Shown in pieces: positions 3,040-31,940 of a stretch of DNA of 32,000 nucleotides. Made by a program: the position numbers and the translations under genes. Position 1 is the first letter of the stretch. Every line of letters begins with the position of its first letter. The stretch covers positions 1,500,001 through 1,532,000 of the forward strand of contig NZ_CP088239.1 in the NCBI RefSeq assembly GCF_021054785.1. Direction: 5' to 3'. This DNA comes from Tannockella kyphosi (GTDB taxonomy: Bacteria; Bacillota_I; Bacilli_A; Erysipelotrichales; Coprobacillaceae). The notes beneath the pieces are model-generated. The model searched no databases, was not told the origin of the DNA, and was given only the letters and a program-made list of their open reading frames with translations.

Positions 3040-3232
3040 CCTTAAAATAAAAAACGTCCTTCTAAAAAAAGGACGTAATATACGCGGTACCACCTTTATT
3101 CATGATAAATTCTATCATGCACTTCATTATCTTAACGCGATTAACGGCGGCCTCTACTTTGTTCAAAGCGCTACTCCAGAGTGATTCATTATAAATAACA
3201 TGTTAGTTTCCACCAAACACTAACTCTCTAAA
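3040..3232 (-). promoter_or_regulatory. T-box leader (Ile specifier AUC) with intrinsic terminator
   Basis: Read on the minus strand: an AGAGAG stem I base (~3224-3230), a specifier-loop-like GAAUCAC with AUC at 3183-3185, and an AGUA-type box. The T-box core GGUGGUACCGCG lies at 3083-3094. The terminator ACGUCCUU/AAGGACGU plus U-run lies at 3047-3077, immediately upstream of ileS. Confidence 0.85.
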
Positions 3233-3270
3233 AATGTTCTTTTATAAACAGTCTCTATCGTTGTATTTCT

Positions 3271-13592: not shown

Positions 13593-13673
13593 TATTCACA
13601 TTTAATTTAATATAGAATAATAATATTCATTTTTTTGCTTATATTCGAAGTTATTTCGTAAATTGTTAGACAT

Positions 13674-13705
13674 TATTTTGTTTTTCATCCCATTTATGCT
13701 ATAAT
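13674..13705 (+). promoter_or_regulatory. Candidate sigma-A promoter of the preQ1-regulated operon
   Basis: TTGTTT, then a ~16-nt spacer, then an extended -10 TGCTATAAT (13697-13705). It ends 15 nt before the riboswitch stem. Confidence 0.5.
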
Positions 13706-13720
13706 CGTCAAGTATTAAAA

Positions 13721-13760
13721 AGACAGTTCGTAACCATCCTGTCTATAAATAAAACTAGGA
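13721..13760 (+). promoter_or_regulatory. preQ1-I riboswitch aptamer
   Basis: AGACAGUUCGUAACCAUCCUGUCUAUAAAUAAAACUAGGA aligns with the B. subtilis queC aptamer AGAGGUUCUAGCUACACCCUCUAUAAAAAACUAAGG. It has a 5-bp P1 (GACAG/CUGUC), a 12-nt loop starting UUC, and an A-rich tail ending CUAGG. Downstream, CUCC(UUUU)AGGAGG could occlude the SD. Confidence 0.8.
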
Positions 13761-13789
13761 CTACTTAGTAGCTCCTTTTAGGAGGAAAA

Positions 13790-14533
13790 ATGAAGAAAGA
13801 ATTAGAAATTGAGATAATGGAAAGATATTCCATTATTAACGAAAAGAACAAAAGAGAAATCGTTCTTTTAAGAGGCCAAGGATGTTCTTGGCGTCGTTGT
13901 CGTTTTTGTGATTATCATTTAGATTTTTCTAGAGATAAAGAAGAAAATATTACTTTAAATCAAAAAGAGTTATCTAAAATAACAGGTATTCATCAAAAAC
14001 TAGAAGTTATTAATTCTGGAAGTTTTACAGAACTACCAGAAGAAACAATGGATCTTATTGAAACAATATGTATTGAAAAAAAGATCAAAGAAGTACATTT
14101 TGAAGCACACTATAACCAAAGAAAATTTATTCCTGCATTACGCCAACGATTTTCTAAAAACAACATTTCCGTTATTATTAAAATAGGAGTTGAAACATTT
14201 GACTACTTATTTAGAGAATCTTATTTAGTAAAAGGTATTCAAACAGATAATCCTAGTGAAATTGCAACTTATTTTGATGAATGTTGTTTATTACAAGGAA
14301 TACCTGGACAAACAAAAGATTCAATGATTCAAGATATTGAAATAGGTTTAACTTATTTTAATCGTGTTTGTATCAATATTATGCAAGAAAATGGAATGGC
14401 TATCAAACCAGATCCAAGCGTTATTGAACTTTTTGTAAAAGAAATATACCCATTATATAAAGAAAATCAAAGAGTGGATATTTTATTAGAAAATACTGCT
14501 TTTGGTGTTGGAGGAGTAACAACAAATGTCTAA
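13790..14533 (+). CDS. Small radical-SAM-type protein (possible queuine-lyase-like salvage enzyme)
   Basis: Cysteine cluster GCSWRRCRFCDY near the N-terminus, read as Cx4Cx2C rather than the canonical Cx3Cx2C. It is the first gene behind a preQ1 riboswitch and overlaps the following transporter gene by 8 nt. Confidence 0.65.
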   Translation: MKKELEIEIMERYSIINEKNKREIVLLRGQGCSWRRCRFCDYHLDFSRDKEENITLNQKELSKITGIHQKLEVINSGSFTELPEETMDLIETICIEKKIKEVHFEAHYNQRKFIPALRQRFSKNNISVIIKIGVETFDYLFRESYLVKGIQTDNPSEIATYFDECCLLQGIPGQTKDSMIQDIEIGLTYFNRVCINIMQENGMAIKPDPSVIELFVKEIYPLYKENQRVDILLENTAFGVGGVTTNV

Positions 14534-15218
14534 TGAATTATTATTAATACTATGTTTAGTATGTACTTATATGAGTGTTTTATTATTTTATCGTTTTTTT
14601 GGAAAAACAGGTTTATATGTTTGGACTGCAATTGTTACCATTAGTGCAAATATCGAAGTATTAATGTTAATCGATGCTTTTGGTGTTGAACAAACATTAG
14701 GAAATATTTTGTTTGCATCTAGTTTTTTAGTAACTGATATTTTATCGGAAAATGAGGATAAAGAGAGTGCAAATCTAGCTGTTAAGATTGGTATTATGTC
14801 GAATATTACTTTTGTGCTTATTTCACAATCATGGTTATTATTCACACCAAACGCAAATGATTGGGTGAGTCCTGCTGTTCATACTATTTTTTCAAATACA
14901 CCTAGATTAATGATTGTTGGGGTTCTTGTTTATGCACTTGCTCAATGGTTTGATGTTTGGGCATATCACCTTATTTGGGAAAAGACAAAAGCAAAGTTTG
15001 GAGATAGTAAAAGAGGTTTATGGCTTAGAAATAATGGTTCTACCTTAGTTTCACAGTTATTAAATACTGTTTTATTTACTTTTGGAGCATTTATTGGTAT
15101 GTATGATATTCCTACTTTAATTAATATTACTATTGCATCTTATGTTATTTATGTTATTACAAGTTTATGTGATACACCTGTAGTTTATTTATCAAGAAAA
15201 ATTAAACCTAAAAACTAA
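14526..15218 (+). CDS. yhhQ: YhhQ/VUT-family queuosine-precursor transporter
   Basis: Six-TM protein with family-typical segments F..SFLVTDILSE...A, LWLRNNGSTLVSQLLNTVLF and a C-terminal DTP..YL. It is under preQ1 riboswitch control. Confidence 0.8.
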   Translation: MSNELLLILCLVCTYMSVLLFYRFFGKTGLYVWTAIVTISANIEVLMLIDAFGVEQTLGNILFASSFLVTDILSENEDKESANLAVKIGIMSNITFVLISQSWLLFTPNANDWVSPAVHTIFSNTPRLMIVGVLVYALAQWFDVWAYHLIWEKTKAKFGDSKRGLWLRNNGSTLVSQLLNTVLFTFGAFIGMYDIPTLINITIASYVIYVITSLCDTPVVYLSRKIKPKN

Positions 15219-15240
15219 AGGGAATATCCCTTTTTTTATT
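15217..15240 (+). terminator. Intrinsic terminator after yhhQ
   Basis: AAAGGGA-ATA-TCCCTTT followed by a T-run, starting at the stop codon. Confidence 0.65.
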
Positions 15241-15304
15241 TACCATTTTAGTTGCAAAACAAGAATAATCTATGTACAATACTTAAAAAGAAAAGGAGTA
15301 TTCT

Positions 15305-15850
15305 ATGATTGATGAAATTATTTTATTTAATGAAAATTTTGTAAAGAACGAAAAATATAAAGACTTTATTACCAATAAATATCCTAATAAGAAATTAGCG
15401 ATTCTCTCATGCATGGATACCCGTTTAACTAAATTACTTCCTGCTGCTTTAGGTTTAGAAAATGGCGATGCTAAAATCATTAAGAATGCGGGTGGTGTTA
15501 TTTCACATCCCTATGGTAGTGCTGTTAGAAGCATACTAATTGCAATCTATCAACTAGGCGTGACTGAAATTATGGTAATTGGTCATAGTGATTGTGGTGT
15601 TCAACATCTAGATAGTCAAAAACTAATTGATTCGATGATAAAACATGGGATTGAAAGCAGTGTTATTGAAAATGTGAAAGCTAGTGGGATTGATTTAGAA
15701 GGTTGGCTGGGAGGCTTCTCTAATGGGGATGCGGCAATTACAAATACTGTCCAATGTTTACAGTCACATCCATTAGTTCCAAAAGATATCCTTATTAAAG
15801 GCTTTATCATGGATTCATTAACAGGATTGCTTCAAGAAGTAAACAAATAG
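15305..15850 (+). CDS. Beta-class carbonic anhydrase
   Basis: Zinc ligand motifs CMDTRL and GHSDCG in a ~180-aa protein. Confidence 0.85.
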   Translation: MIDEIILFNENFVKNEKYKDFITNKYPNKKLAILSCMDTRLTKLLPAALGLENGDAKIIKNAGGVISHPYGSAVRSILIAIYQLGVTEIMVIGHSDCGVQHLDSQKLIDSMIKHGIESSVIENVKASGIDLEGWLGGFSNGDAAITNTVQCLQSHPLVPKDILIKGFIMDSLTGLLQEVNK

Positions 15851-15888
15851 GATTCTTTTATGATGCAATTAAAACATTCCTTTTCATT

Positions 15889-15979
15889 TTATTTCATAAC
15901 ATTTAACATACTACCTACAACAACAAGTGTAATTATGAAAGAGGATCTCCTATAACTAAATAGCGGGTGCAATGGTAGC
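15889..15979 (-). pseudogene. Diverged orphan copy of the ftsW 3' end (old att-site remnant)
   Basis: About 80% identical by eye to 23159-23254. The minus strand reads LPLHPLFSYRRSSFIITLVVVGSMLNVMK*, compared with [28 protein letters not shown] for the real FtsW. No upstream ORF is present. Confidence 0.6.
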
Positions 15980-16032
15980 TTAGGTCTCTTTTTTAGCTTC
16001 TTTATAAAATATCATTTTCATTTATTTCAGTT

Positions 16033-16307
16033 ACCAAGAATACAGAACAGCTTCATAAGATAGTGTTGATTGTTTTTTAGTAAATGGGTATACTATTGGT
16101 GAGGTTAAGTGGATTAACTTAAAAAAAGAGTTCTTGCTGGATCTCTTTTTTCGTTCTTTCGAACTAATCGTTAGAAGCAAGACGAATCAAGAACCAGTAA
16201 TCTTTTATGATAACTATAATCAAGACTCCTAGTCCAAACTTGACATCCAACATATATGTTTTAGTTATAATATTACTCTTCATTCTAACTAGAATTATTT
16301 AACCTAC
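16033..16307. repeat. Degenerate type I TA-like unit, copy 1
   Basis: Plus-strand TTGATT-17-TATACT (16066-16094) and an imperfect terminator (~16125-16151). On the minus strand the peptide ORF is reduced to a stub after SD-CTTGATT and the TGGTATAAT toxin promoter is absent. Confidence 0.55.
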
Positions 16308-16590
16308 AAAAAATTCAGAACAGCTTCACAAGATAGCGTTGACTGTTTTTTAGTAAATGGGTATACTATTAATGAGGTAAGGCGAATTACCAATAAAAAA
16401 GAGATCGGGCAGATCTCTTTTTTCGTTCTTTCGAACTAATCGTTGGAAGCAAGGCGAATCAAGAACTAGTTATCTTTTTAGAATAATTGCAATCAATACT
16501 CCTAATTCAAACTTGACCTCCAACATAACATGTTTTTAGTCATAATATTGCCCTCCATCGACTGTCAATATTATACCATATTTGATTGAT
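16308..16590. repeat. Type I TA-like unit, copy 2 (sRNA side intact, peptide ORF deleted)
   Basis: TTGACT-17-TATACT (16339-16367) and terminator AGAGATC-GGGCA-GATCTCT (16394-16424). The minus-strand TGGTATAAT (16570-16578) and AGGAG are retained, but ATGGAACTACTTATTGTGGTTCTTGT is missing between the two ATTGATT repeats. Confidence 0.6.
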
Positions 16591-16631
16591 CGAATGTTTA
16601 ATTTCAAGCCTAATTCTACAACTATTATTAC

Positions 16632-16880
16632 CTAAAAACAGTTCCCTTGATATTGGTCTAGTAGTAGTACTAGGCCTCTTTTCTTTAGTCTATCGTTCGT
16701 TACAGTATTACACATGATATATGCCATGGCAACTCGTGCGTATGCTTTTCTACTATTTGCCCATTCCCATGCTTTATATTTGTTTGCTCCTAGTTTTATT
16801 AGTGCTCTATATTTTGTACCTATTCTTTTCCATTGTTTCCATATGCACATCCTAAGTCTAAACCGTGTACGTGTGGCCGC
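16632..16880 (-). pseudogene. Group II intron reverse transcriptase/maturase, C-terminal fragment only
   Basis: RLRMCIWKQWKRIGTKYRALIKLGANKYKAWEWANSRKAYARVA...NDRLKKRGLV matches the conserved C-terminal (X/maturase-distal) region of bacterial intron-encoded proteins. No RT domain lies upstream and no domain V/VI RNA lies downstream. Confidence 0.65.
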
Positions 16881-17188
16881 AATAAACTGGACAGTTATTA
16901 TAAATTAATAATAACTGAAAAGGAGGCTCTAGAAGCAGACGAGAAAGACATATTTTTACAACTGCATTTAAAAAGCAAATGGTTGATTTGCATCACGGTG
17001 GTAAACACACTCGGGCTGTCGTTATAGGAGAGTATCATTATTTGATTATATTTAGATGATCGTACTTGAAACATTTATACACTTTTCAATAATCTCTGGA
17101 GACTTAAAACATCCCCTCATATATATACCTACAAAAGGTGAGCAAGTTGACCGAATTATTTTTAACTTTAGTAGCATAATTGAAATAT

Positions 17189-17204
17189 TATCATAATTAT
17201 GATA
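17189..17204. promoter_or_regulatory. 16-bp perfect palindrome overlapping the phd promoter (candidate operator)
   Basis: TATCATAATTATGATA lies between TTGAAA and the -10-like TAATAA, 22 nt upstream of the antitoxin ATG. Confidence 0.45.
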
Positions 17205-17226
17205 ATAACAAAAGGAGATGATAGCT

Positions 17227-17514
17227 ATGCCAAAGATTAGACCGGTTTCAGATTTAAGAAACAATTTTACTGATATTTCAAGAATTATTCATGAGGAATC
17301 AGAGCCTATCTTTTTAACTAAAAATGGTTATGGTGATATGGTTGTAATGAGCATTGAAGCTTACGAAAAACTCCAATTTGAAAATGAAATTTATTTCAAA
17401 TTGAAAGAAGCAAAATTACAAGCAAAGAGTACTGATATAAGATATTCTCATGAAGAAGTTTTCGGAGATTTAAGAAAAAAACTCCAAGATAAGGTAGACA
17501 TAGATGACATATAA
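17227..17514 (+). CDS. Phd/YefM-family type II antitoxin (copy A)
   Basis: MPKIRPVSDLRNNFTDISRIIHEESEPIFLTKNGYGDMVVMSIEAYEKL is the Phd/YefM fold signature. Start set at MPKIRP to match copy B. It differs from copy B at only two residues. Confidence 0.8.
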   Translation: MPKIRPVSDLRNNFTDISRIIHEESEPIFLTKNGYGDMVVMSIEAYEKLQFENEIYFKLKEAKLQAKSTDIRYSHEEVFGDLRKKLQDKVDIDDI

Positions 17515-17672
17515 AATACAATATCTACCAATTGCAAGAGAAGATATTGAACAGTCAGTGATTGTTTGTATGCACCTAAAGCAGCATTAGATTTACTTGA
17601 CAACATAGATAAAACTATAGACAACTTAAAAACCTTTCCAATTGCATATCCAGTCAATGAAACCTCTTGATA
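17504..17672 (+). pseudogene. ParE/RelE-family toxin remnant (frameshifted and 3'-truncated)
   Basis: The ATG overlaps the antitoxin stop. It starts MTYKIQYLPIAREDIEQ and shares the frameshift seen in copy B. Relative to copy B, the segment from TTTGAATATCG through CAAATACTCCAA (C-terminal two thirds) is deleted. Confidence 0.65.
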
Positions 17673-17805
17673 AGGCATTGATAAATTGAATAAAGTTACT
17701 TTACAAGCAAATATTTTCATTCTACACCAAAACTTATGGGCAATTTAAAATTCTGAAACTATAGATGAATCAAGCTCTTTGAAGAACTAAATAAGCAGAC
17801 CTAAG

Positions 17806-17840
17806 AAACACCGTAAATTCCAAGTTTACGGTGTTTTATT
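17806..17840 (+). terminator. Hairpin/terminator at the end of the Phd/ParE block
   Basis: AACACCGTAAA-TTCCAAG-TTTACGGTGTT followed by TTATT. In the cargo-less copy (22621-22643) only the 5' arm, the loop and TTTAC survive. Confidence 0.5.
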
Positions 17841-17952
17841 AGGCACTATAAATTAATTTTTTAAACCCCACTTACGTTTAAAGCACTAATGTCCTATTAA
17901 CTTTACGACAATTAGTGCTTTATTATTTTATGATTACTATTATACTTATCTT

Positions 17953-19107
17953 TTAAAATTTATCCCAAATCAAATACAACGCTAATAATGGCCCATTTTC
18001 ATATCCTTGTTCTGGATACTCTTTTTGCAGTTTGTAAAATTGCTTCAATAACAACTCCGAAAACTGCACTTCCCTCTTAATTCCTAATACTAGACAAACC
18101 ATAGATCGTGCTATTGGATATTTGATTTCCTCTATATTTTTTGTTAAATCCTCCACATATTTAGCATCTGAAATAGCTAATGCTAATGTGGCTATTTCAA
18201 CAAATTCATCTTGTCTATTATTTTTAATTTGCTTTAAAACAAGAGGTATAATTTGTTCTTCCATGGATGAAACTTTCTCTAATATATTTTCTCTATTTAT
18301 TACTATTGTAGATTTACGCATACATCTAATCAATTCTTTGGGGCAAGTAATCTGCATAATCGATGCTTTATCTTTCTCAATTTCCAATATTCTTTCTTCA
18401 TCTAAGAAGGGGAAGGTCGCTTCGTCAAGAAGATGCTTAAATTCATGGCTTCTCATCATAATTAAATTCAAATATAGGATCATAGCTGATGAGCTTTCTT
18501 CCAATTTATTTTGTTCAAAGAACTTTGCTGGTATACAAACCTTTTCGTAACTTTTCTTTTCAGCGAAAATCTTTTCCTGAAATCTATGAATAATATCTTC
18601 TGCAACTTCTCCTGGCAATCTTCCGTTTATGTTTATCTTATTTCTGATATTTTTAAATGCTGGTTTGTAATAATTAATATCTTCTTGAATGTCTTGCAAA
18701 TAATGCTCCTTGTGCTTATTTTTATAATCATCATCAATATAGCAATGATCATTTTCATCTGAAAATACTAATCTATCAAATATATTTGTTACACTATCTT
18801 GTAATTCTATTGCTATAGTATTAGCCCATAATAGATATCTATCAAATACACTCGCATACACAATAGGGCTAATTGCAATTACTTTATTCTGTTCTTTTGA
18901 TTTCATTAATAAATCTAAAACAACACCCTTTTTCTGATCACGTTCTAATTTATCTGGAATATTATTTACAAATTCTTCCAACGTTGTTCCATAATAAACT
19001 GTTGTTTCGTAATCCAAATCATAAAATTTATATCCTATTTTTTCAGCTAGTACTTCACCCGTTGTTGTCTTTCCTACATTTGTAATGCCAAGCAGTAAAA
19101 TTATCAT
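17953..19107 (-). CDS. P-loop protein: N-terminal shikimate/adenylate-kinase-like module plus ~200-aa helical C-terminal domain, function unknown
   Basis: Walker A LLLGITNVGKTTTGEVLAEKIGYKFYDLD at residues 4-32 in a compact kinase-like ~180-aa module. The C-terminal half looks helical-repeat-like. A GAGGTG RBS lies 6 nt upstream, and the start is 36 nt after the SEC-C gene. Confidence 0.6.
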   Translation of the reverse strand: MIILLLGITNVGKTTTGEVLAEKIGYKFYDLDYETTVYYGTTLEEFVNNIPDKLERDQKKGVVLDLLMKSKEQNKVIAISPIVYASVFDRYLLWANTIAIELQDSVTNIFDRLVFSDENDHCYIDDDYKNKHKEHYLQDIQEDINYYKPAFKNIRNKININGRLPGEVAEDIIHRFQEKIFAEKKSYEKVCIPAKFFEQNKLEESSSAMILYLNLIMMRSHEFKHLLDEATFPFLDEERILEIEKDKASIMQITCPKELIRCMRKSTIVINRENILEKVSSMEEQIIPLVLKQIKNNRQDEFVEIATLALAISDAKYVEDLTKNIEEIKYPIARSMVCLVLGIKREVQFSELLLKQFYKLQKEYPEQGYENGPLLALYLIWDKF

Positions 19108-19143
19108 ACATTCACCTCAGTCTACGATAAGGTAAACCTTATC

Positions 19144-20550
19144 TTATTTTTTACAACACTTTTTATACTTTTTTCCACTCCCACATGGACAAGGTTCATT
19201 AGGAGATATTTTTGTTACTTTTCTTTCAACTCCCTTGTTTGTCCCAGTAGAATACGACATCATAGGAATAATACTTTCAGACCTTTCTGAATCAATATTC
19301 TTCTTTAACATTTCAGTCGGTGTGTGTCCGCAATTACGCCATATTCTAGTCGAATTCATTATCTCTATTATATAACTCACGACCTCATTTGCTTGATTTA
19401 TATCTTTCATTAGTATGTCAAATTTTTCCAATTGTGCAAAAACATACTGAATACATCCCTCGGAACTACCACCATATTCCATTAATTCAGCATCAAAAAT
19501 GAACTCATGAATTCCATCTAGGATGTAATCTATATAATCTATGGCTTGCATTTCTCCTTGGTTCGCCGCTTTCTTAAAGTTCTTCATATATTTGCGCTCT
19601 AAATACCTCACAAATCTTTTTTCTGCAATGTTTATTTCTCTATAACTTGCATCAGCATACCTTAAAAATTCTATTCTAGACGGGATATATCGCTCATTCT
19701 CTGCCGATTCCCAATACAATTCACGGAAATACGAAGTTGCTCTTTTATAAAAGAATTCGTCTAAATGTTCTTCTGTAATCTCTGTATTTTTGTTACGAAG
19801 GAACCTAGCCATTTTTTCTATTTCCTTTTCAAGTTGCTCTCTAAAGCATTCATGTAGAATCAGTCCATCCATAGTCATACACACCCCTGGTATCATATTT
19901 CCAATTATGTTACTAAGGACTGCTGTGCACATATGCTTTGGGTTAAATACGATTGAATGAGCGTATTTCCCACCCAAACGTATATATCCATCTTCTTCCC
20001 ATATTTTCTTTTCATATTGCCTTATCAACGACTCTAATTCTTTAACATGAATTACACCATATAAATGAACAGCTGCCAATGCATATTGTCGAATCATATC
20101 TACGTATGCTTTACGTTTCATATATACCTTATCAATCGCTAAGATATCATAATCTTCTTGACATCTGTAAGATTCTAATAATCGCCTTATTTCATCATCA
20201 TCGAAACCTATAGTTATACAAAAACATTCAAAAATAGCATCCTCGCCTAACGCCTCTGCAATTAAGTTTATTTTTTCCTGTTTTTTTAATTTGTATGGAT
20301 TGTCGGCCATTTCACAAATTCTTCTACAGATTTCTAAAGCTGCTTCATCTAAAAAATCATATTGAGACTCAACAAACATCATAGATGTTTGTTCCGCTAC
20401 TATCTCTAGAAATTCATTTTTAGTCCCTTGTACCAATTCTCTAATATCACAATTCTTCTCAATAACCTGTACTACAATAGTCAGTAACTTATCAATATCT
20501 TTTGCATAATATTTCATTAAGCAATTCTGTATTTTATCTTTTCTACTCAT
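19144..20550 (-). CDS. SEC-C-motif (SecA-type zinc finger) protein, function unknown
   Basis: 468-aa protein whose composition looks predominantly helical, ending EPCPCGSGKKYKKCCKK. I recognise no catalytic motif. Confidence 0.65.
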   Translation of the reverse strand: MSRKDKIQNCLMKYYAKDIDKLLTIVVQVIEKNCDIRELVQGTKNEFLEIVAEQTSMMFVESQYDFLDEAALEICRRICEMADNPYKLKKQEKINLIAEALGEDAIFECFCITIGFDDDEIRRLLESYRCQEDYDILAIDKVYMKRKAYVDMIRQYALAAVHLYGVIHVKELESLIRQYEKKIWEEDGYIRLGGKYAHSIVFNPKHMCTAVLSNIIGNMIPGVCMTMDGLILHECFREQLEKEIEKMARFLRNKNTEITEEHLDEFFYKRATSYFRELYWESAENERYIPSRIEFLRYADASYREINIAEKRFVRYLERKYMKNFKKAANQGEMQAIDYIDYILDGIHEFIFDAELMEYGGSSEGCIQYVFAQLEKFDILMKDINQANEVVSYIIEIMNSTRIWRNCGHTPTEMLKKNIDSERSESIIPMMSYSTGTNKGVERKVTKISPNEPCPCGSGKKYKKCCKK

Positions 20551-20829
20551 TTTTTACACCTATTCTTTCTTTTTATTTACGCATCACCCCTTGGTGATAA
20601 ATTCATATTCGTTGTGAATATGTGCTTCCTTTTTCATATCTTCATACTAACAAAAACATCAATTTAACAAATCAGCTAACACGCTAGCTTTTAAAACTTC
20701 TACCTTCCCAAAATACGAGAATGATATTACATATTCTACTTTATCAAAGCTATTCTCATTAATCAAGTATATAAGATCACTTCACCAAATCGTATTGACT
20801 ATTTATTAATAAATGGATATACTATTGGT

Positions 20830-20879
20830 GAGGTTAAGTAGATTAACTTAAAAAAAAGAGATCGGCCGATCTCTTTTTT
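20830..20879 (+). ncRNA. Candidate type I antitoxin sRNA (copy 3)
   Basis: Promoter TTGACT-17 nt-TATACT (20795-20823). The 20-nt perfect palindrome AAGAGATCGGCCGATCTCTT (20856-20875) plus a T-run ends the transcript after ~50 nt. Nt 20830-20845 can pair with the toxin mRNA at 20902-20917, including two G-U pairs. Confidence 0.5.
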
Positions 20880-20921
20880 CGTTCTTACGAACTAATCGTT
20901 GGAGGCTAAGTAGATCAAGAG

Positions 20922-20978
20922 CTAGTTATCTTTTATAATAACTATAATCAATACAAGAACCACAATAAGTAGTTCCAT
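20922..20978 (-). CDS. Candidate type I toxin, 18-aa hydrophobic peptide MELLIVVLVLIIVIIKDN (copy 3)
   Basis: Extended -10 TGGTATAAT (21058-21066) and AGGAG (20987-20991) 8 nt before the ATG. It converges on the sRNA terminator. The identical peptide is encoded at 22885-22941. It is below the ORF-track size cutoff. Confidence 0.5.
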   Translation of the reverse strand: MELLIVVLVLIIVIIKDN

Positions 20979-21195
20979 AATCAATACTCCTAATTCAAAC
21001 TTGACCTCCAACATAACATGTTTTTAGTCATAATATTGCCCTCCACCGACTGTCAATATTATACCATATTCGTACGATGAAAAGAGTCTTTTCAATGATA
21101 ATTCGTTCACTATTTTTTATAAATTTATCAACTAAAAATAGTTTCCTTTATATCTAAGAAATCTTATTGATTTCTTCTTTTTTTATACAAAAATA

Positions 21196-21291
21196 TTAAT
21201 TTTGTTTCATAACATTTAACATAATACCTACTGCAATAAGTGTAATCGTTAAAGAAGATCCACCATAACTAAAAAATGGTAAAGTGACGCC
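21196..21291 (-). pseudogene. Exact orphan duplicate of the last 96 nt of ftsW
   Basis: Identical by eye to 23159-23254 (codons for [31 protein letters not shown]). Identity stops abruptly after GTGACGCC at 21291 and 23254. Confidence 0.85.
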
Positions 21292-21300
21292 TGTAACGTG

Positions 21301-21330
21301 TAGTTCACGCTCCCTTTAGAACGTGAACTA
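21301..21330. repeat. 9-bp inverted repeat next to the ftsW' junction
   Basis: TAGTTCACG-12 nt-CGTGAACTA, beginning 10 nt from the homology breakpoint. Confidence 0.6.
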
Positions 21331-21585
21331 GCTATCACACTTAAATCCACATTAAAGAATACTTCTATGTTTCTTTCTTCATCTATTTCTACCTTTGAAT
21401 TAAATCCAATATTAGTTTACGATTAACCTCTTTTAAACTCACAAACTGTTCAATCGTTCTTTTCACTTCATCACAGCTAACAATATTTTTTTGTCATCTT
21501 TTAGTATTTCTAATCTTGTGTTTAGTTTGTTTACTTTGGGGGTGCGGACGTTTTCGTTGATATTTATATCTTGGATAGGCTACAA
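21330..21585 (-). pseudogene. C-terminal remnant of a large serine recombinase (DUF4368-like tail), frameshifted
   Basis: Minus-strand frames read ...NTRLEILKDDKKILL..., then KRTIEQFVSLKEVNRKLILDLIQR, then VEIDEERNIEVFFNV. This resembles the coiled-coil and terminal domain of Firmicute large serine recombinases. It is interrupted by stops or frame changes, and the N-terminal ~400 aa are absent. Confidence 0.4.
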
Positions 21586-21816
21586 AAAACTGGACAGTTA
21601 TTATAAGAGCGACTATTGTTAATGATAACTAAAAAGGAGGCTATAGAAATAGAAGAGAAAGATGTATTTTTACAACTGCATTTAAAAAGCAGCTTGAAAC
21701 ATCTATTCACTTTTCAATAATCTCTGGAGACTTAAAAACTCCCCCTCATATATATATCTGCAAAAGGTGAGCAAGTTGACCGAATTATTTTTAACTTTAG
21801 TAGCATAATTGAAATA

Positions 21817-21834
21817 ATATCATAATTATGATAT
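21817..21834. promoter_or_regulatory. 18-bp perfect palindrome overlapping the phd promoter (candidate operator)
   Basis: ATATCATAATTATGATAT lies between TTGAAA and TATAAT, upstream of the antitoxin at 21867. Confidence 0.45.
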
Positions 21835-21866
21835 TATAATGATAATAACGGAAGGAGCTGATAGCT

Positions 21867-22154
21867 ATGCCAAAGATTAGACCGGTTTCGGATTTAAGAA
21901 ACAACTTTACTGATATTTCAAGAATTATTCATGAGGAATCAGAGCCTATCTTTTTAACTAAAAATGGTTATGGGGATATGGTTGTAATGAGCATTGAGGC
22001 TTACGAAAAACTCCAATTTGAGAATGAAGTCTATTTCAAATTGAAAGAAGCAGAATTACAAGCAAAGAGTACTGATATAAGATATTCTCATGAAGAAGTT
22101 TTTGGAGATTTAAGAAAAAAACTCCAAGATAAGGTAGACATAGATGACATATAA
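21867..22154 (+). CDS. Phd/YefM-family type II antitoxin (copy B)
   Basis: Same signature as copy A, with a GGAAGGAG RBS. Confidence 0.85.
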   Translation: MPKIRPVSDLRNNFTDISRIIHEESEPIFLTKNGYGDMVVMSIEAYEKLQFENEVYFKLKEAELQAKSTDIRYSHEEVFGDLRKKLQDKVDIDDI

Positions 22155-22439
22155 AATACAATATCTACCAATTGCAAGAGAAGATATTGAACAGTCAGTG
22201 ATTGTTTGTATGCACCTAAAGCAGCATTAGATTTACTTGACAACATAGATAAAACTATAGACAACTTAAAAACCTTTCCACTTGCATATCCAGTCAATGA
22301 AACAACAAAACCTCTTGATTTTGAATATCGAATGATACCTGTTAAAAACTATTTAATTTTCTATGTAGTTACAGGAGATATTGTTGAAATTCATAGAGTG
22401 GTATACTCGAAAATGGATTTAACAAGACTACTAAAATAA
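22144..22439 (+). pseudogene. ParE/RelE-family toxin with an N-terminal frameshift
   Basis: ATG 22144 overlaps the antitoxin stop and gives MTYKIQYLPIAREDIEQSV, then stops at 22228-22230. The rest (YAPKAALDLLDNIDKTIDNLKTFPLAYP...YRMIPVKNYLIFYVVTGDIVEIHRVVYSKMD) is in another frame, open from 22191. The C-terminal part is a typical ParE/RelE fold signature. Confidence 0.65.
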
Positions 22440-22788
22440 CCAAATACTCCAAAGGCATTGATAAATTGAACAAAGTTACTTTACAAGCAATTCAAGATGT
22501 TTAAAACGATATTGGTACAAGCAAAGATTTTCATTCTACACCAGAACTTATGGGTAATTTAAAATTTTGAAACTGTAGATAAATCAAACTCTATGAAGAA
22601 CTAAATAAGCAGACCCAAGAAACACCGTAAATTCCAAATTTACTCAACTAACACGCTAGCTTTTGGAACTTCTATGAGAATGATATTACATGTTCACCTT
22701 TACCAAAGATTTTCTCATTAATCAAGTATATAGGATTACTTCACCAGATTGTATTGACTGTTTTTTAGTAAATGGGTATACTATTGGT

Positions 22789-22841
22789 GAGGTAAGATGG
22801 AATTACCAATAAAAAAAGAGATCCTGCTAGATCTCTTTTTT
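22789..22841 (+). ncRNA. Candidate type I antitoxin sRNA (copy 4)
   Basis: TTGACT-17-TATACT (22754-22782) and terminator AGAGATC-CTGCTA-GATCTCT plus T-run (22813-22841). Nt 22791-22805 match the target at 22866-22880 at 13 of 15 positions, and both differences give G-U pairs. Confidence 0.5.
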
Positions 22842-22884
22842 CGTTCTTACGAACTAGTCGTTGAAGGCAAGATGGAATCAAGAG

Positions 22885-22941
22885 CTAGTTATCTTTTATA
22901 ATAACTATAATCAATACAAGAACCACAATAAGTAGTTCCAT
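22885..22941 (-). CDS. Candidate type I toxin, 18-aa peptide MELLIVVLVLIIVIIKDN (copy 4)
   Basis: TGGTATAAT (23021-23029) and an AGGAGG RBS 7 nt before the ATG. The ORF nucleotide sequence is identical to copy 3. Confidence 0.5.
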   Translation of the reverse strand: MELLIVVLVLIIVIIKDN

Positions 22942-23118
22942 GATCGATCCTCCTAATTCAAACTTGACCTCCAACATAACATGTTTTTAGTCATAATATT
23001 GCCCTCCACCGACTGTCAATATTATACCATATTCGTACGATGAAAAGAGTCTTTTCAATGATAATTCGTTCACTATTTTTTATAAATTTATCAACTAAAA
23101 ATAGTTTCCTTTATATAC

Positions 23119-23147
23119 GAGAAATCTTATTGATTTCTTCTTTTTTT
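23119..23147 (+). terminator. Plus-strand intrinsic terminator between the toxin promoter region and the ftsW stop
   Basis: AGAAATC-TTATT-GATTTCT followed by CTTTTTTT. The same element occurs at ~21157-21186. The T-run is on the plus strand only. Confidence 0.5.
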
Positions 23148-23158
23148 ATACAAAAATA

Positions 23159-24232
23159 TTAATTTTGTTTCATAACATTTAACATAATACCTACTGCAAT
23201 AAGTGTAATCGTTAAAGAAGATCCACCATAACTAAAAAATGGTAAAGTGACGCCAGTTATCGGAAAAATTCCAACAACCACACCCAAGTTAATCAATGCT
23301 TGTATTGACAATAATGAACCAATCCCAACTAACAAAAAACATCCAAATAAATCATGACATTCCTTGGCACTAGAAATAATAAGATAAATTAAAAAAACAT
23401 ATAATCCAATTAAAAAAATAGCTCCTATCAAACCAAATTCTTCGCAATAAATAGCAAATATAAAATCAGTTTGAGGCTCTGGTAAATAAAAGTGTTTTTG
23501 AATACTATTATTATAACCAACCCCCACTATTCCTCCAGGTCCAATCGCATACAAAGATTGTATCATTTGAAATCCACTTCCCAAAGGATCGCCAAAAGGA
23601 TCTAAATAAGCAGTTATTCTTTCCAAACGATAAGGAGCCGCTACTATCATCCCAACTAACCCAGCAACACCCCCTAAACCAAGAAAAACAAAATAACGAA
23701 AAGGTAATGGTGTAACTAACAACATAACAACTATACTACTAGCCATCACGATAGCACTACCAAAATCAGGTTGCAACATAATCAAACCAAACCCTATCAA
23801 TATCACAACAAATAAAGCAATTGCATTGCTTATTTTTTTTAATTCCAAATAATACAAATGAATATAACGAGCACTATAAATAATAATACCAACTTTAAAT
23901 AATTCACTAGGTTGAAAAGAAACAATACCAAAATCAAACCAACTTTGTGATCCTCCTCTTGCACTACCAACTCCCGGAATAATTACTAAAATTAATAATA
24001 TAAATGTCACCAACAATAATTTTCTACTATGTACTAAATAAAAATGATAATCTATCTTAGAAACTATAAACATACATACAATCCCAATAAACGCAAAAAA
24101 TAATTGCCTCTTTATATAATAAAAAGAATCTCCAAACTTATAAAAAGCCCATACATTACTAGCGCTATAAACCATACACAAACCAATAAACACAATCACT
24201 AACACTACTCCAATGACTAATCTATATCGCAT
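23159..24232 (-). CDS. ftsW: SEDS-family peptidoglycan glycosyltransferase FtsW (SpoVE position in sporeformer dcw clusters)
   Basis: Ten-TM FtsW/RodA/SpoVE signature ([27 protein letters not shown]) and a position between murD and murG. Confidence 0.9.
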   Translation of the reverse strand: MRYRLVIGVVLVIVFIGLCMVYSASNVWAFYKFGDSFYYIKRQLFFAFIGIVCMFIVSKIDYHFYLVHSRKLLLVTFILLILVIIPGVGSARGGSQSWFDFGIVSFQPSELFKVGIIIYSARYIHLYYLELKKISNAIALFVVILIGFGLIMLQPDFGSAIVMASSIVVMLLVTPLPFRYFVFLGLGGVAGLVGMIVAAPYRLERITAYLDPFGDPLGSGFQMIQSLYAIGPGGIVGVGYNNSIQKHFYLPEPQTDFIFAIYCEEFGLIGAIFLIGLYVFLIYLIISSAKECHDLFGCFLLVGIGSLLSIQALINLGVVVGIFPITGVTLPFFSYGGSSLTITLIAVGIMLNVMKQN

Positions 24233-31390: not shown

Positions 31391-31789
31391 TTATTTTTTC
31401 TTTTCAGGTTTTGACTTAAACTTTTCATGATTCATATACTTGTCATATTCTACGCACAAAGTAGAAGAATGATTCCCTTGATTAACAATGCAACCAAATC
31501 GCATATGACCTACATAACCAAGATAACCTATTTTATAATCTCTATATAAAGACATAATATCATCTGGTCGCCTATCACTTGCAAGTACACCATCTCCATA
31601 GCTAAAACTCTCTTTATCTAATTGCTTAATAAAATGCTCCTTTGTTTCTTTATCCTTCACATGAATATATACACTTCCATATACATCCACCAAGTTTTTA
31701 AGCGTCCTTACTTTAAGTCTTTCCTTTCTTTGTCTTTTTTGATTCTTTTCAAACTCCTTTTTCACTACCTTTTTAATTTCTTTTTTCAT
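31391..31789 (-). CDS. Hypothetical 132-aa protein with lysine-rich termini
   Basis: The ORF is intact and lies directly downstream of the SAM-riboswitch-like leader. I recognise no domain. The best-placed ATG after AGGAGG (8 nt) opens only a 6-codon frame, and the long ORF starts 4 nt later. Confidence 0.5.
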   Translation of the reverse strand: MKKEIKKVVKKEFEKNQKRQRKERLKVRTLKNLVDVYGSVYIHVKDKETKEHFIKQLDKESFSYGDGVLASDRRPDDIMSLYRDYKIGYLGYVGHMRFGCIVNQGNHSSTLCVEYDKYMNHEKFKSKPEKKK

Positions 31790-31820: not shown

Positions 31821-31940
31821 AGAAAAAGAAAATCCCATCGTTACCGACAGGATTATACGTTCATTCATTCCTTAGCACCTTATTAAAAGCAGGTTGCTGT
31901 ACGATCAATGGTCTTGTCCCTCACGTACTCTAGATAGTTT
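31821..31940 (-). promoter_or_regulatory. SAM-I (S-box) riboswitch-like leader with terminator
   Basis: The minus strand reads CUAUCUAGAG-UACGU-GAGGGA-CAAGACC-AUUGA-UCGUACA-GCAACC-U..-AGGUGCUAAGG. This carries the ordered S-box core motifs AGAG, GAGGGA, GA, GCAACC and GGUGCUAA, with P2 (UACG/CGUA) and P3 (ACCU/AGGU) pairing. It is followed by the hairpin AAUCCUGUCG-GUAA-CGAUGGGAUU plus a U-run (31821-31854). I could not draw P1 or P4 cleanly. Confidence 0.5.

Follow-up and report, generated by a model that had tools for sequence, protein, structure and literature searches.

The question raised by this locus is whether an 18-codon hydrophobic open reading frame (ORF), together with a small RNA (sRNA) gene converging on it, makes up a toxin-antitoxin (TA) pair of type I in Tannockella kyphosi (Erysipelotrichales), a bacterium from the gut of a seaweed-eating fish. 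The window, by which we mean the whole 32-kb stretch of DNA that was analysed, was found to hold four copies of this module and not the two counted in an earlier sequence-only reading; modules 1 and 2 are complete, and two extra, decayed copies (modules 3 and 4) lie at ~16.0-16.6 kb. Sequence and folding together suggest that the module is probably a chromosomal, multi-copy type I TA-like family which has so far gone undescribed. That it comprises an antisense RNA/mRNA pair is well supported, whereas the coding capacity and toxicity of the 18-aa ORF are what we infer, since its two intact copies (modules 1 and 2) are nucleotide-identical and a homologue was absent from every collection searched. 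Three features by which the type I class is recognised were found here: a small ORF that encodes a hydrophobic peptide and has translation signals of its own, a neighbouring antisense RNA gene whose predicted transcript is complementary over an extended length to the predicted toxin mRNA and, as judged by folding prediction, a masked Shine-Dalgarno (SD) sequence and a 5'-3' closing helix in the full-length mRNAs.

Every element described in the sequence-only reading was recovered where it had been placed (Table 1), apart from the length of the terminator palindrome: this is indeed bidirectional, perfect and flanked by an A-run and a T-run, but spans 28 nt and not 20 nt. Thus the extended -10 TGGTATAAT, the AGGAG 8 nt ahead of the ATG and the 18-codon ORF are all present on the minus strand, as is the second module with its identical ORF, for which 0 matches are expected by chance, and the TTGACT-17-TATACT promoter of the plus strand is repeated in module 2. 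The peptide, MELLIVVLVLIIVIIKDN, is without P, G or C and its polar tail has only 3 residues; the hydrophobic stretch amounts to 13 residues, which is short for a membrane span and counts against the reading favoured here. A 13-codon upstream ORF (uORF) is intact in modules 1, 2 and 4, and its TAG stop overlaps the SD of the 18-aa ORF. There is also an in-frame ATG 12 codons upstream of the 18-aa ORF, which would give a 30-aa ORF, but this extension was rejected as a real ORF as it has no SD and two of the three inter-copy differences within it are non-synonymous.

Table 1. Coordinates of the four modules within the window, with their predicted features
Feature	Position	Strand	Remarks
Module 1 extended -10 TGGTATAAT of peptide mRNA	21058-21066	-	Same sequence in modules 2 and 4
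Module 1 predicted ~200-nt peptide mRNA	20851-21051	-	Putative start ~7 nt past the -10; 3' end is the U-run
Module 1 13-codon uORF MTKNMLCWRSSLN	20990-21031	-	GGAGGG-7 nt-ATG
Module 1 leader box GUUGGAGGUCAAG, 5' arm of long-range 5'-3' helix	21000-21012	-	Fold pairs 40-48:146-154, 50-53:141-144
Module 1 SD AGGAG of 18-aa ORF	20987-20991	-	ATG 8 nt downstream
Module 1 18-codon ORF MELLIVVLVLIIVIIKDN plus stop, candidate toxin	20922-20978	-	GRAVY 2.33
Module 1 anti-SD GCUCUUGA	20915-20922	-	Begins inside stop codon; pairs with UUAGGAGU; fold pairs 59-66:130-137
Module 1 mRNA arm of direct repeat UUGAUCUACUUAGCCUC	20902-20918	-	17-nt repeat; 17 bp with sRNA, -24.4 kcal/mol
Module 1 small hairpin GUUC-GUAA-GAAC (GNRA loop)	20881-20892	-	Between repeat arm and terminator; conserved
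Module 1 bidirectional intrinsic terminator	20852-20879	both	28-nt perfect palindrome; A-run and T-run flanks
Module 1 predicted ~50-nt antisense sRNA	20830-20881	+	5' hairpin (loop GUAGA) plus terminator; repeat arm 20830-20846; fold z = -3.5
Module 1 sRNA promoter TTGACT-17-TATACT	20795-20823	+	Hexamers conserved, spacer variable
Segmental repeat unit: module 1 plus relic of last ~100 nt of ftsW (about 21194-21290)	20672-21294		Partner 22644-23257
Module 2, complete	22754-23029	both	mRNA fold z = -8.3; cognate duplex -24.5 kcal/mol
Module 2 sRNA promoter TTGACT-17-TATACT	22754-22782	+	
Module 2 sRNA	22789-22843	+	
Module 2 terminator	22812-22841		
Module 2 mRNA repeat arm	22864-22880	-	
Module 2 18-codon ORF	22885-22941	-	Identical to module 1
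Module 2 uORF	22953-22994	-	
Module 2 extended -10	23021-23029	-	
Module 3, most decayed	16066-16282	both	mRNA promoter lost; stop TAG to TGG
Module 3 sRNA	16101-16154	+	Promoter TTGATT-17-TATACT
Module 4, peptide-dead	16339-16578	both	Cognate duplex -24.3 kcal/mol
Module 4 sRNA -35	16339-16344	+	
Module 4 sRNA	16374-16427	+	
Module 4 GNRA hairpin	16425-16436		
Module 4 retained uORF	16502-16543	-	
Module 4 retained -10	16570-16578	-	

Promoter-like hexamers alone are not enriched in the window (12 found against 17.6 expected from shuffles). Strong SD+ATG sites, on the other hand, number only 26 in the whole 32 kb; six of these head ORFs of 10-40 aa and five of the six lie inside modules. Between copies, the sRNA -10 is identical at 6/6 positions in every comparison and the -35 likewise, except against module 3 (5/6), whilst the 17-nt spacer is identical at 13/17 positions between modules 1 and 2 and the repeat cores at only 8-12 of 14-18. 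The invariant hexamers with their variable spacer, the clustering of SD+ATG sites in the modules and mRNA folds far beyond those of shuffles thus place these elements beyond chance. A terminator scan did not pick up the shared hairpin, probably because its A/U-extended stem uses up the T-run.

A 17-nt DNA direct repeat, overlooked in the sequence-only reading, brackets the shared terminator, as a consequence of which the ~50-nt sRNA can pair through its 5' hairpin with the mRNA segment that directly follows the stop codon. Complementarity between the two RNAs falls into two blocks, the ~30-nt terminator overlap and the 17-nt repeat arm, and the best sRNA site on the mRNA is at nt 133-150, immediately 3' of the stop codon and not at the ribosome binding site (RBS). 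The cognate 17-bp duplexes of modules 1, 2 and 4 lie between -24.3 and -24.5 kcal/mol (Table 1), energies reached by 0/2000 arm shuffles, compared with -8 to -14 kcal/mol for non-cognate duplexes. When modules 1 and 2 are compared in the ungapped duplex register, 6 pairs are changed on both sides, 2 changes are one-sided with pairing kept and 0 pairs are broken. Two G.U wobble positions persist in all cognate pairs, and simple homogenisation of the arms is therefore disfavoured; gene conversion as the source of the match was rejected on these conserved wobble differences. Each of the four sRNAs is predicted to fold into a 5' hairpin, the loop of which varies, followed by the terminator; the variable core of the arm sits in this loop (GUAGA in the sRNA of module 1, GAUGGAA in that of module 2). 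As both arms change together, the copies present three specificities, and the matching arms would so make each sRNA specific for its own mRNA. The orphan sRNA of module 3 pairs with the mRNA of module 1 (-24.1 kcal/mol) and not with its own (-12.3 kcal/mol). The locus can be regarded as a compact natural experiment, since a single stretch combines sRNA/mRNA pairs of three orthogonal specificities with an orphan candidate antitoxin and two copies in which the candidate toxin is dead; this permits the direct study of how antisense specificity diversifies and how modules decay.

The mRNA of module 1 folds at -65.3 kcal/mol (z = -6.4 against shuffles; z = -8.3 for module 2), and in the full-length mRNAs of both modules the SD is predicted to be wholly paired (P(unpaired) = 0.00) with the anti-SD beginning in the stop codon, a contact that had also been overlooked; in the nascent RNA the SD is predicted to be accessible (P(unpaired) 0.8-0.99 over the two modules and 0.8-0.98 in module 1). 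The whole coding hairpin is predicted to be closed by a long-range helix in which the GGAGG box of the leader pairs with a CCUCC/CCUUC box of the 3'-UTR, the repeat arm of module 1 being both the target of the sRNA 5' hairpin and the 3' arm of this 5'-3' helix. For modules 2 and 4, folding predicts a helix at the 5' end, AGUCG:CGAYU, which is possible in module 1 as well and depends on the putative transcription start site. The architecture originally claimed, in which convergent mRNA and short RNA have a common bidirectional terminator, is strengthened by the covarying repeat, the conserved sRNA design, this sequestration of the SD and the two copies that have lost the ORF and kept the sRNA.

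In the mechanism that we propose, the extended -10 promoter on the minus strand would give rise to a ~200-nt mRNA carrying the 18-codon ORF behind its strong SD, and the convergent sigma-70-type promoter to a ~50-nt RNA made up of the 5' hairpin and the shared terminator. The 18-aa peptide would insert into the membrane and be harmful once made, and the sRNA would neutralise it by pairing over an extended length with the 3' end of the mRNA. Once in this duplex, the mRNA would be open to RNase III-type cleavage and to 3' decay, like that of txpA/RatA and bsrG/SR4 in Bacillus subtilis, where type I repression is mainly by duplex-dependent RNase III cleavage and decay (PMC3531473, PMC5848175) and toxin mRNAs with overlapping 3' ends are silenced by RNase III (PMC3531473). 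Masking of the RBS as in par is not the proposed mode. A bound sRNA arm would cover the final 4 nt of the anti-SD helix as well as all of the 3' arm of the closing helix, and constrained folding with the 17-nt target and terminator occupied lifted P(unpaired) of the SD, which is 0.00 without this constraint, to 0.57-0.70 for module 1 and 0.38-0.85 for module 2. Full pairing of the sRNA arm is thus predicted to loosen rather than tighten the SD lock, and for this reason any repression is likelier to act through duplex-triggered decay than through a translational block of the par type.

The same overlap and the same rise in SD accessibility are what would be expected if the sRNA were instead an activator, the 5' arm of which mimics the leader box (GAGGUYAAG), competes for the 3'-UTR site and unlocks the SD, with a role for the peptide that need not be toxic. 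We consider this unlikely. The long duplex made by ~30 nt of perfect terminator complementarity and 17 bp is typically an RNase III substrate in Firmicutes (PMC3531473), the thermodynamic prediction leaves out kinetics, ribosomes and nucleases, and the loss of the ORF where the sRNA is kept, together with an orphan sRNA that matches an intact mRNA, fits a protective RNA better. It is similarly doubtful that the sRNA is a key which, on pairing with the 3'-UTR, breaks both anti-SD contacts and so turns on the translation of the uORF and of an 18-aa membrane peptide; were this true, the hypervariable hairpin loops would constitute three orthogonal key-lock pairs in one locus, and the locus would be an antisense-activated small-protein switch on type I TA architecture, not a toxin-antitoxin pair. 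The coincidence of the predicted 3'-UTR target with the RBS-locking sequence therefore poses a mechanistic question, that of decay versus unlocking.

An SD/anti-SD lock formed by a 5'-3' interaction, combined with an antisense RNA on the 3' side, is a recognised determinant of Gram-positive type I systems (PMC8594479, PMC7472228). Like the module, par (the Fst/RNA I-RNA II system of Enterococcus faecalis pAD1, with chromosomal relatives in the Fst/Ldr superfamily) has convergent promoters with a shared bidirectional terminator whose stem-loops are complementary, additional complementarity from oppositely transcribed DNA direct repeats, intramolecular SD masking, possibly a helix that shuts away the extreme 5' end, and a hydrophobic peptide of small size whose C-terminus is charged (PMC7472228). 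However, par has two repeats, DRa and DRb, over the translation initiation region whereas the module has a single repeat 3' of the stop, in the anti-SD/closing-helix region; the par SD is masked by a 5' stem-loop and not by a 3' anti-SD, and the par toxin is of ~33 aa with a PXXXG(C) motif (PMC7472228), which is absent from the 18-aa peptide of the module. The module also matches none of the Fst/Ldr models or Rfam families above noise; it is par-like in layout yet outside Fst/Ldr, and the original attribution to a type I TA family holds for the architecture and the short hydrophobic peptide, and its likeness to par/Fst for layout only.

The txpA/RatA, bsrG/SR4, bsrE/SR5 and yonT/SR6 systems of B. 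subtilis are Gram-positive type I systems whose antisense RNA lies, as in the module, to the 3' side of the toxin mRNA, and in free bsrG mRNA the SD is pre-sequestered. Their antisense RNAs, however, are of 100-220 nt and overlap the ORF 3' end contiguously, whereas the overlap in the module is the terminator only and specificity lies in a separate repeat arm; their toxins (38-59 aa) are unrelated to the module peptide. In SprA1/SprA1AS of Staphylococcus aureus, functional pairing is by a non-overlapping 5' domain of the antisense RNA. As in the module, this antisense RNA overlaps the mRNA 3' end only (organisation: PMC8594479), but SprA1AS targets the RBS and start codon and PepA1 is a 30-aa peptide of the Fst family, both unlike the module. 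In length the module peptide (18 aa) agrees with the Ibs toxins of Escherichia coli, which are 18-19 aa and almost purely hydrophobic, and Ibs/Sib is likewise a multi-copy family in which only the cognate mRNA is recognised, by means of short recognition domains (PMC2943612). Sib RNAs, though, are ~140 nt long and antisense across the whole ibs ORF whereas the module sRNA stops 40 nt short of the ORF, and Ibs/Sib is Gram-negative and without sequence similarity to the module. The full-length mRNAs of hok/mok/sok and aapA1/IsoA1 are likewise inert through a 5'-3' long-distance interaction, and the mok reading frame, which overlaps the toxin initiation region and couples translation, has a possible counterpart in the uORF that stops in the SD of the candidate toxin. 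The hok and aapA1 antisense RNAs bind the 5' region of the 3'-processed active mRNA, whereas the sRNA target in the module is at the 3' end and would be removable by 3' processing.

Homology searches gave no relative of the module. Rfam, at gathering thresholds and at E <= 10, returned nothing at the modules beyond unrelated sRNAs (best E = 0.2-9), Pfam and NCBIfam held no relevant family for the 22-aa and 30-aa ORF versions at E <= 10, and comparison with the Fst/Ldr family models produced no match. No match was obtained by blastn of the module against plasmids and phages, by phmmer of the 30-aa ORF against 1.84 billion protein representatives (0 matches), or by exact look-up, which covered about 15 billion predicted proteins, of the extended 30-aa ORF in either of its versions; nor were eight spurious ORFs that overlap the modules on record in an exact look-up. 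Degenerate SD+peptide patterns, which required 13 consecutive NTN codons and D/E/N/K as second residue, gave 2 matches in IMG/VR, both out of frame, 7 in the GTDB representative genomes, 0 of them homologous (the T. kyphosi source genome not being included), and 48 in JGI metagenomes, where the 12 most plausible short-ORF matches, viewed in context, had neither leader nor terminator nor convergent promoter of the module and the remainder were judged from peptide, ORF length and G+C only. Two conserved nucleotide blocks had 0 matches in IMG/VR. These patterns are narrow, so diverged relatives would escape such scans. On balance we favour a new type I family, a possibility already raised in the sequence-only reading. 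If confirmed, this would add a type I TA family in Erysipelotrichales, with a candidate toxin among the shortest known; in the literature searched, no type I TA system was named together with Erysipelotrichaceae. Genes of this kind are concealed by ORF-length cut-offs.

Modules 3 and 4 share a 33-nt deletion in the ORF which removes the ATG and 10 codons, whilst all four sRNA genes, including theirs, keep their promoters. A TA pair would be expected to decay in this way, the toxin being lost and the antitoxin kept; however, two ORF-less copies out of four would also be expected were the ORF irrelevant. The 18-aa ORF could then be an incidental part of an RNA element under antisense regulation, and selection would act on the leader (perhaps with the uORF), the 3'-UTR structures and the sRNA, whether these serve as a regulatory or sponge pair made of RNA only or in cis for the surrounding island. 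This would account for module 4, where the deletion has left promoter, leader and uORF in place and where the GNRA hairpin, the sRNA and a matched repeat arm also persist, all at high identity, and for the lack of a coding-selection signal in the 18-aa ORF, and the uORF does have a strong SD of its own. We nevertheless regard it as improbable, as the canonical SD at 8 nt, the ATG and the SD-masking fold with its anti-SD in the stop codon imply that translation of the ORF matters, and type I toxins are typically built in this manner, from a core of extreme hydrophobicity and a charged tail. Moreover, the leader of module 4 may simply be young or kept alike by gene conversion. The leaders of modules 1 and 2 are nucleotide-identical, as their ORFs are, and that the leader halves are nearly identical across modules 1, 2 and 4 could stem from a recent duplication or from gene conversion instead of selection, which counts against the favoured reading too. 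Homology of module 4 to modules 1 and 2 starts just upstream of the extended -10, and the GNRA hairpin loop is GUAA in modules 1 and 2 and GAAA in modules 3 and 4.

The modules lie in a 9.5-kb island where the ftsW 3' end occurs three times and the Phd/ParE cassettes are duplicated, and the partner of the segmental repeat is contiguous with the real ftsW. That the repeats are instead recombination or integration scars (att-like sites, or target-site duplications on either side of a palindromic insert) at a hotspot formed by the ftsW 3' end, with no RNA function and with promoters and ORF as chance features of AT-rich DNA, would suit this setting and the lack of hexamer enrichment, but is highly improbable: the flanks on either side of the repeat are homologous in all copies, so that differing target-site duplications cannot yield three matched cores and such an origin of the repeat was rejected, the two conserved wobble differences oppose homogenisation of the arms, the hexamers are kept where spacers vary, the structures of sRNA and mRNA are shared by the copies and far exceed shuffles in stability, and no integrase or transposase was found among the island ORFs scanned (7 with Pfam, two with NCBIfam). 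The modules may help to stabilise the island, which would have grown by repeated insertion at the ftsW 3' end. Homologues of Phd at 91-93% protein identity have the Phd/ParE cassette in other contexts, without the module, and in FtsW relatives at ~70% identity murG directly follows ftsW with no module. In the closest FtsW relative (78%), the contigs end 74 nt past ftsW, within a 30-nt block identical to the window.

The basic layout of module 1, one copy of the convergent sRNA/peptide mRNA pair, is confirmed at the coordinates given by the sequence-only reading: the extended -10 element is present on the minus strand, the leader of the peptide mRNA (~73 nt, where ~70 nt had been proposed) carries AGGAG 8 nt before the ATG, and the plus-strand TTGACT-17-TATACT promoter of the sRNA recurs in module 2. 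The palindrome, set between an A-run and a T-run, also stands, but it extends over 28 nt and not 20 nt. Promoter-like hexamers are not enriched per se (12 in the window vs 17.6 in shuffles) and the shared hairpin was not picked up by a consensus terminator scan, probably because a greedy A/U-extended stem consumes the T-run; the significance of the arrangement must therefore rest on other evidence. The sRNA -10 hexamer is identical in all four copies of the module, the -35 is TTGACT in three (TTGATT in module 3), and modules 1 and 2 show 4 differences in the 17-nt spacer.

The 18-codon hydrophobic ORF was found in module 1 and, as claimed, in identical form in module 2, with these two matches in the window and none in 100 shuffles. 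It encodes ME, then 13 aliphatic residues, then KDN (GRAVY 2.33), a composition typical of small toxins. Strong initiation sites (AGGAG/GGAGG, 4-9 nt, ATG) number only 26 in 32 kb on both strands and only six of these precede an ORF of 10-40 aa, all but one of the six falling in modules, at the two 18-aa ORFs and at three copies of a 13-codon upstream ORF (uORF) in the mRNA leader. As the two intact ORFs are nucleotide-identical, no substitution pattern can be read for the peptide; the anti-SD built onto the stop codon of the ORF was counted in favour of it being real.

Coordinates and sequences of the principal features of the modules and their surroundings
Feature	Module or location	Strand	Position	Sequence or remark
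Extended -10, peptide mRNA	1	minus	21058-21066	TGGTATAAT
sRNA promoter	1; 2	plus	20795-20823; 22754-22782	TTGACT-17-TATACT
18-codon ORF	1; 2 (identical)	minus	20978-20922; 22941-22885	MELLIVVLVLIIVIIKDN
13-codon uORF	mRNA leader	minus	20990-21031; 22953-22994; 16502-16543	MTKNMLCWRSSLN; GGAGGG-7 nt-ATG
Shared terminator	1	both	20852-20879	28-nt perfect inverted repeat, A-run and T-run flanks
17-nt direct repeat around terminator	1		20830-20846; 20902-20918	GAGGTTAAGTAGATTAA; GAGGCTAAGTAGATCAA
sRNA arm	1			GAGGUUAAGUAGAUUAA
sRNA arm	2			GAGGUAAGAUGGAAUUA
sRNA arm	4			GAGGUAAGGCGAAUUA
12-nt 3' UTR hairpin	repeat arm-terminator interval	minus	20881-20892; 22843-22854; 16425-16436; 16153-16164	GUUC-GNRA-GAAC
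11-nt direct repeat	1	minus	20977-20987 (across SD-ATG spacer); 20944-20954 (inside ORF)	GTATTGATTAT
11-nt repeat, exact copy	2	minus	22907-22917	GTATTGATTAT
11-nt repeat, SD-side copy	2	minus		GGATCGATCAT, 3 differences
FtsW/SpoVE-family protein	island edge	minus	23159-24232
30-nt non-coding block	downstream of ftsW		23086-23115; 21123-21152	TATAAAGGAAACTATTTTTAGTTGATAAAT

A feature absent from the earlier note is the 17-nt DNA direct repeat around the terminator, the two sides of which are transcribed convergently, so that the sRNA is complementary, over its initial 17 nt, to the mRNA directly 3' of the stop codon. In module 1 this arm duplex has 17 contiguous pairs including two G.U; terminator overlap and repeat arm together give ~47 bp of complementarity. 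The repeat core varies among modules 1, 2 and 4, with the mRNA arm altered in parallel in each; in the interaction matrix the cognate duplexes reach -24.4, -24.5 and -24.3 kcal/mol, respectively, against -8.0 to -14.1 kcal/mol for the non-cognate combinations, and the observed energy was reached by 0/2000 shuffles of each arm. Between modules 1 and 2, in ungapped register, six pairs are double-changed, two are single-changed with pairing kept and none is broken. At two positions all cognate pairs have U in the sRNA opposite G in the mRNA, and the arms are therefore not simply being homogenised; here each RNA retains the base required by its own fold, be it the sRNA hairpin stem or the mRNA-leader helices. 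Module 3 is chimeric, its sRNA being one base off sRNA1 and pairing with mRNA1 (-24.1 kcal/mol) and not with its own remnant (-12.3), which sRNA4 also fits (-22.0 kcal/mol). This covariation between paralogues gives good support to the putative antisense RNA pair.

All four predicted sRNAs are 52-55 nt long and share a common design of 5' hairpin, A-rich linker and terminator hairpin. The 5' stem is GGUUAA/UUAACU or GGUAA/UUACC, and the variable core is carried in a loop of 5-7 nt (GUAGA, GAUGGAA, GGCGAA or GUGGA); antisense RNAs classically present their recognition loop in this way, variable in sequence and atop a conserved stem. Fold z-scores lie between -3.5 and -5.3 for three of the four, that of sRNA3 being -2.6 (4/200 shuffles at least as stable).

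The peptide mRNAs are themselves predicted to be strongly folded, at -65.3 kcal/mol (z = -6.4) in module 1 (~200 nt, inferred start near 21051) and -71.6 kcal/mol (z = -8.3) in module 2. In both, the SD-bearing UUAGGAG(U) pairs with GCUCUUGA, which starts at the last base of the stop codon, giving an SD P(unpaired) of 0.00, and codons 2-8 form an 8-bp hairpin abutting the start codon. A predicted long-range helix closes the entire coding region; this is GUUGGAGGU with GCCUCCAAC in module 1 and the first leader box GAGGGCAA with UUGCCUUC (or equivalent) in modules 2 and 4, which add a helix of AGUCG, at the extreme 5' end, with CGAYU. For nascent RNA, truncated at its 3' end, folding predicts an open SD (P(unpaired) 0.8-0.99), and therefore this lock would form only after the post-stop sequence has been made, ~55 nt past the ATG. 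The uORF adds a possible further layer: it ends in a TAG that lies over the SD (UUAGGAG) of the 18-aa ORF, 10 nt before the ATG of the latter, and its translation would melt the SD/anti-SD helix in a manner resembling mok/hok coupling; its own SD is predicted to pair with a 3' UTR box in modules 2 and 4. The 12-nt 3' UTR hairpin is nearly invariant in the four copies, the sole change (GUAA to GAAA) retaining the GNRA tetraloop, and may serve as a junction element in the sRNA/mRNA complex or as a site for a protein.

Sequence and folding together show two convergent genes, two complementarity blocks and cognate specificity, with a predicted translational lock. SD/anti-SD pairing, a 5'-3' interaction and, in Gram-positives, a 3'-side antisense RNA are the determinants of type I toxin mRNAs described in T1TAdb (PMC8594479), and the modules are predicted to display them. 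A toxin-antitoxin pair explains the locus best, and in this reading we place fair confidence, toxicity and the mode of repression being argued by analogy: the peptide would be membrane-toxic and the sRNA would prevent its synthesis. Constrained folding with the 17-nt target and terminator occupied raises SD accessibility, to 0.4-0.85, and the sRNA arm covers the entire 3' arm of the closing helix as well as one end of the anti-SD helix. These predictions could be taken for the opposite, namely that the sRNA unlocks translation, which we consider improbable. Within the toxin-antitoxin reading, it is this exposure of the SD, and the overlap with both helices, that lead us to favour an sRNA/mRNA duplex which would trigger cleavage and 3' decay, a mode established for the 3'-overlapping systems of B. 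subtilis, in which RNase III is essential precisely for silencing txpA and yonT (PMC3531473).

The decay of the family bears on the same question. A second complete module had been recognised correctly, but the window holds four copies and not two, as blastn of 20640-23300 against it returned two more on the minus strand, module 4 (~16339-16578) and module 3 (~16066-16282). Modules 1 and 2 lie within a ~620-bp segmental repeat (20672-21294 and 22644-23257), in which identity is 98-100% over the mRNA promoter, leader and ORF but only ~83% on the sRNA side. Modules 3 and 4 share one 33-nt deletion, which takes the ATG and ten codons and falls exactly between the two copies of GTATTGATTAT; this repeat pair appears to give a built-in route to inactivation of the peptide gene. 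Module 3 is also without an mRNA promoter. Conservation of the ORF, on which the sequence-only reading had partly staked its proposal, does not extend to modules 3 and 4, whereas all four sRNA genes retain their promoters and the orphan sRNA of module 3 still matches an intact mRNA. Toxin-antitoxin pairs usually decay in this way, losing the peptide gene and retaining the antisense RNA, and in this context the pattern points toward, not against, the toxin-antitoxin reading, although toxicity is not thereby proved.

With regard to known systems, the convergent genes, shared terminator and antisense complementarity of the proposed type I architecture hold, but membership of par/Fst fails on the features tested. 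In layout par/Fst is the closest, with convergent promoters, a bidirectional terminator and direct-repeat complementarity (PMC7472228); however, the module has one repeat after the stop codon where par has two over the initiation region, its 18-aa peptide is without the PXXXG motif, and the mode of repression probably differs. Searches of Pfam, NCBIfam and Rfam gave no match for module or peptide, which also counts against par/Fst membership. The module resembles SprA1/SprA1AS in using a non-overlapping 5' domain of the antisense RNA, Ibs/Sib in its very small peptide (Ibs toxin size), cognate-only discrimination and multi-copy family (PMC2943612), and hok and aapA1 in the 5'-3' lock and possibly in uORF coupling. 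Its best placement is inside the known type I class, as a new family. To the specialist, its interest lies in three orthogonal specificities and an orphan antitoxin within one small locus, in the unusual 3'-UTR target on an SD lock, and in the failure of every search to detect a homologue.

No match to the module was found by blastn in plasmid and phage collections, no homologue in three scans of IMG/VR or a pattern scan of GTDB representatives, and no relative was recognised in JGI metagenomes, where 12 short-ORF matches were viewed in context and the others by peptide alone. Exact protein look-ups (a 30-aa extended ORF and overlapping spurious ORFs) found none on record, and phmmer with the 30-aa ORF gave 0 matches among 1.84 billion representatives. 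As the DNA patterns were strict, this failure is weak evidence. A degenerate pattern scan brought up four copies of a 28-aa ORF, MDLLMLFV(L/F)L(I/M)(V/L)LLIRKRRTKLKIEIDL, in the Acidobacteriia MAG CAIQWJ01 (contigs 036, 072 and 011; loci L006, L009, L011 and L012), with GGAGG, a conserved G+C-rich hairpin upstream and another downstream; this looks like an unrelated multi-copy locus for a small hydrophobic peptide and is a possible type I toxin family in Acidobacteria.

Tannockella kyphosi, of the Erysipelotrichales, is a hindgut bacterium of the fish Kyphosus sydneyanus (PMC11333855); the window has a G+C content of 30%. All four modules sit in a ~9.5-kb island separating murG from ftsW, with mraY, murD and ftsW on one side and murG, murB, ftsQ, ftsA and ftsZ on the other. 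Since murG directly follows ftsW in relatives with ~70% FtsW identity (L064, L065), the island (13600-23260) is taken to be an insertion in the cell-wall/division cluster. The ftsW 3' end is present in three copies, the real gene and relics of its last ~80-100 nt at ~21194-21290 and 15883-15960, and by blastn a second Phd/ParE cassette (17065-17829) is ~95% identical to 21693-22643. Three ftsW 3' ends, four modules and two cassettes suggest repeated insertion or recombination at this site; the island ORFs scanned yielded neither an integrase nor a transposase. The duplicated type II cassette (21867-22439 and 17218-17663) has a frameshifted ParE gene (22143-22439) in one copy and a truncated ParE in the other, and ParE is deleted in a metagenome contig ~97% identical to the window (L003). 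Cassettes with an intact 102-aa ParE occur elsewhere (L067-L069) at 86-87% nucleotide identity and without the type I module, adjoining transposases or a phage replication gene.

Downstream of ftsW, the 30-nt non-coding block belongs to a 9-bp inverted repeat, ACTATTTTT...AAAAATAGT, and is 100% identical in a co-occurring species (FtsW 78% identity), 40-74 nt downstream of its ftsW, which has different upstream neighbours. The three contigs of that species (L061 3810-3839, L062, L063) all end at this block, and a homologous region therefore probably continues further; this is the one sign of a relative that emerged. Two regulatory leaders ordinary in Firmicutes were also found on the minus strand of the window, a T-box upstream of ileS (3066-3270, 132 bits) and a SAM riboswitch (31832-31940; 46.8 bits, just above threshold) upstream of a 132-aa ORF (31391-31789).
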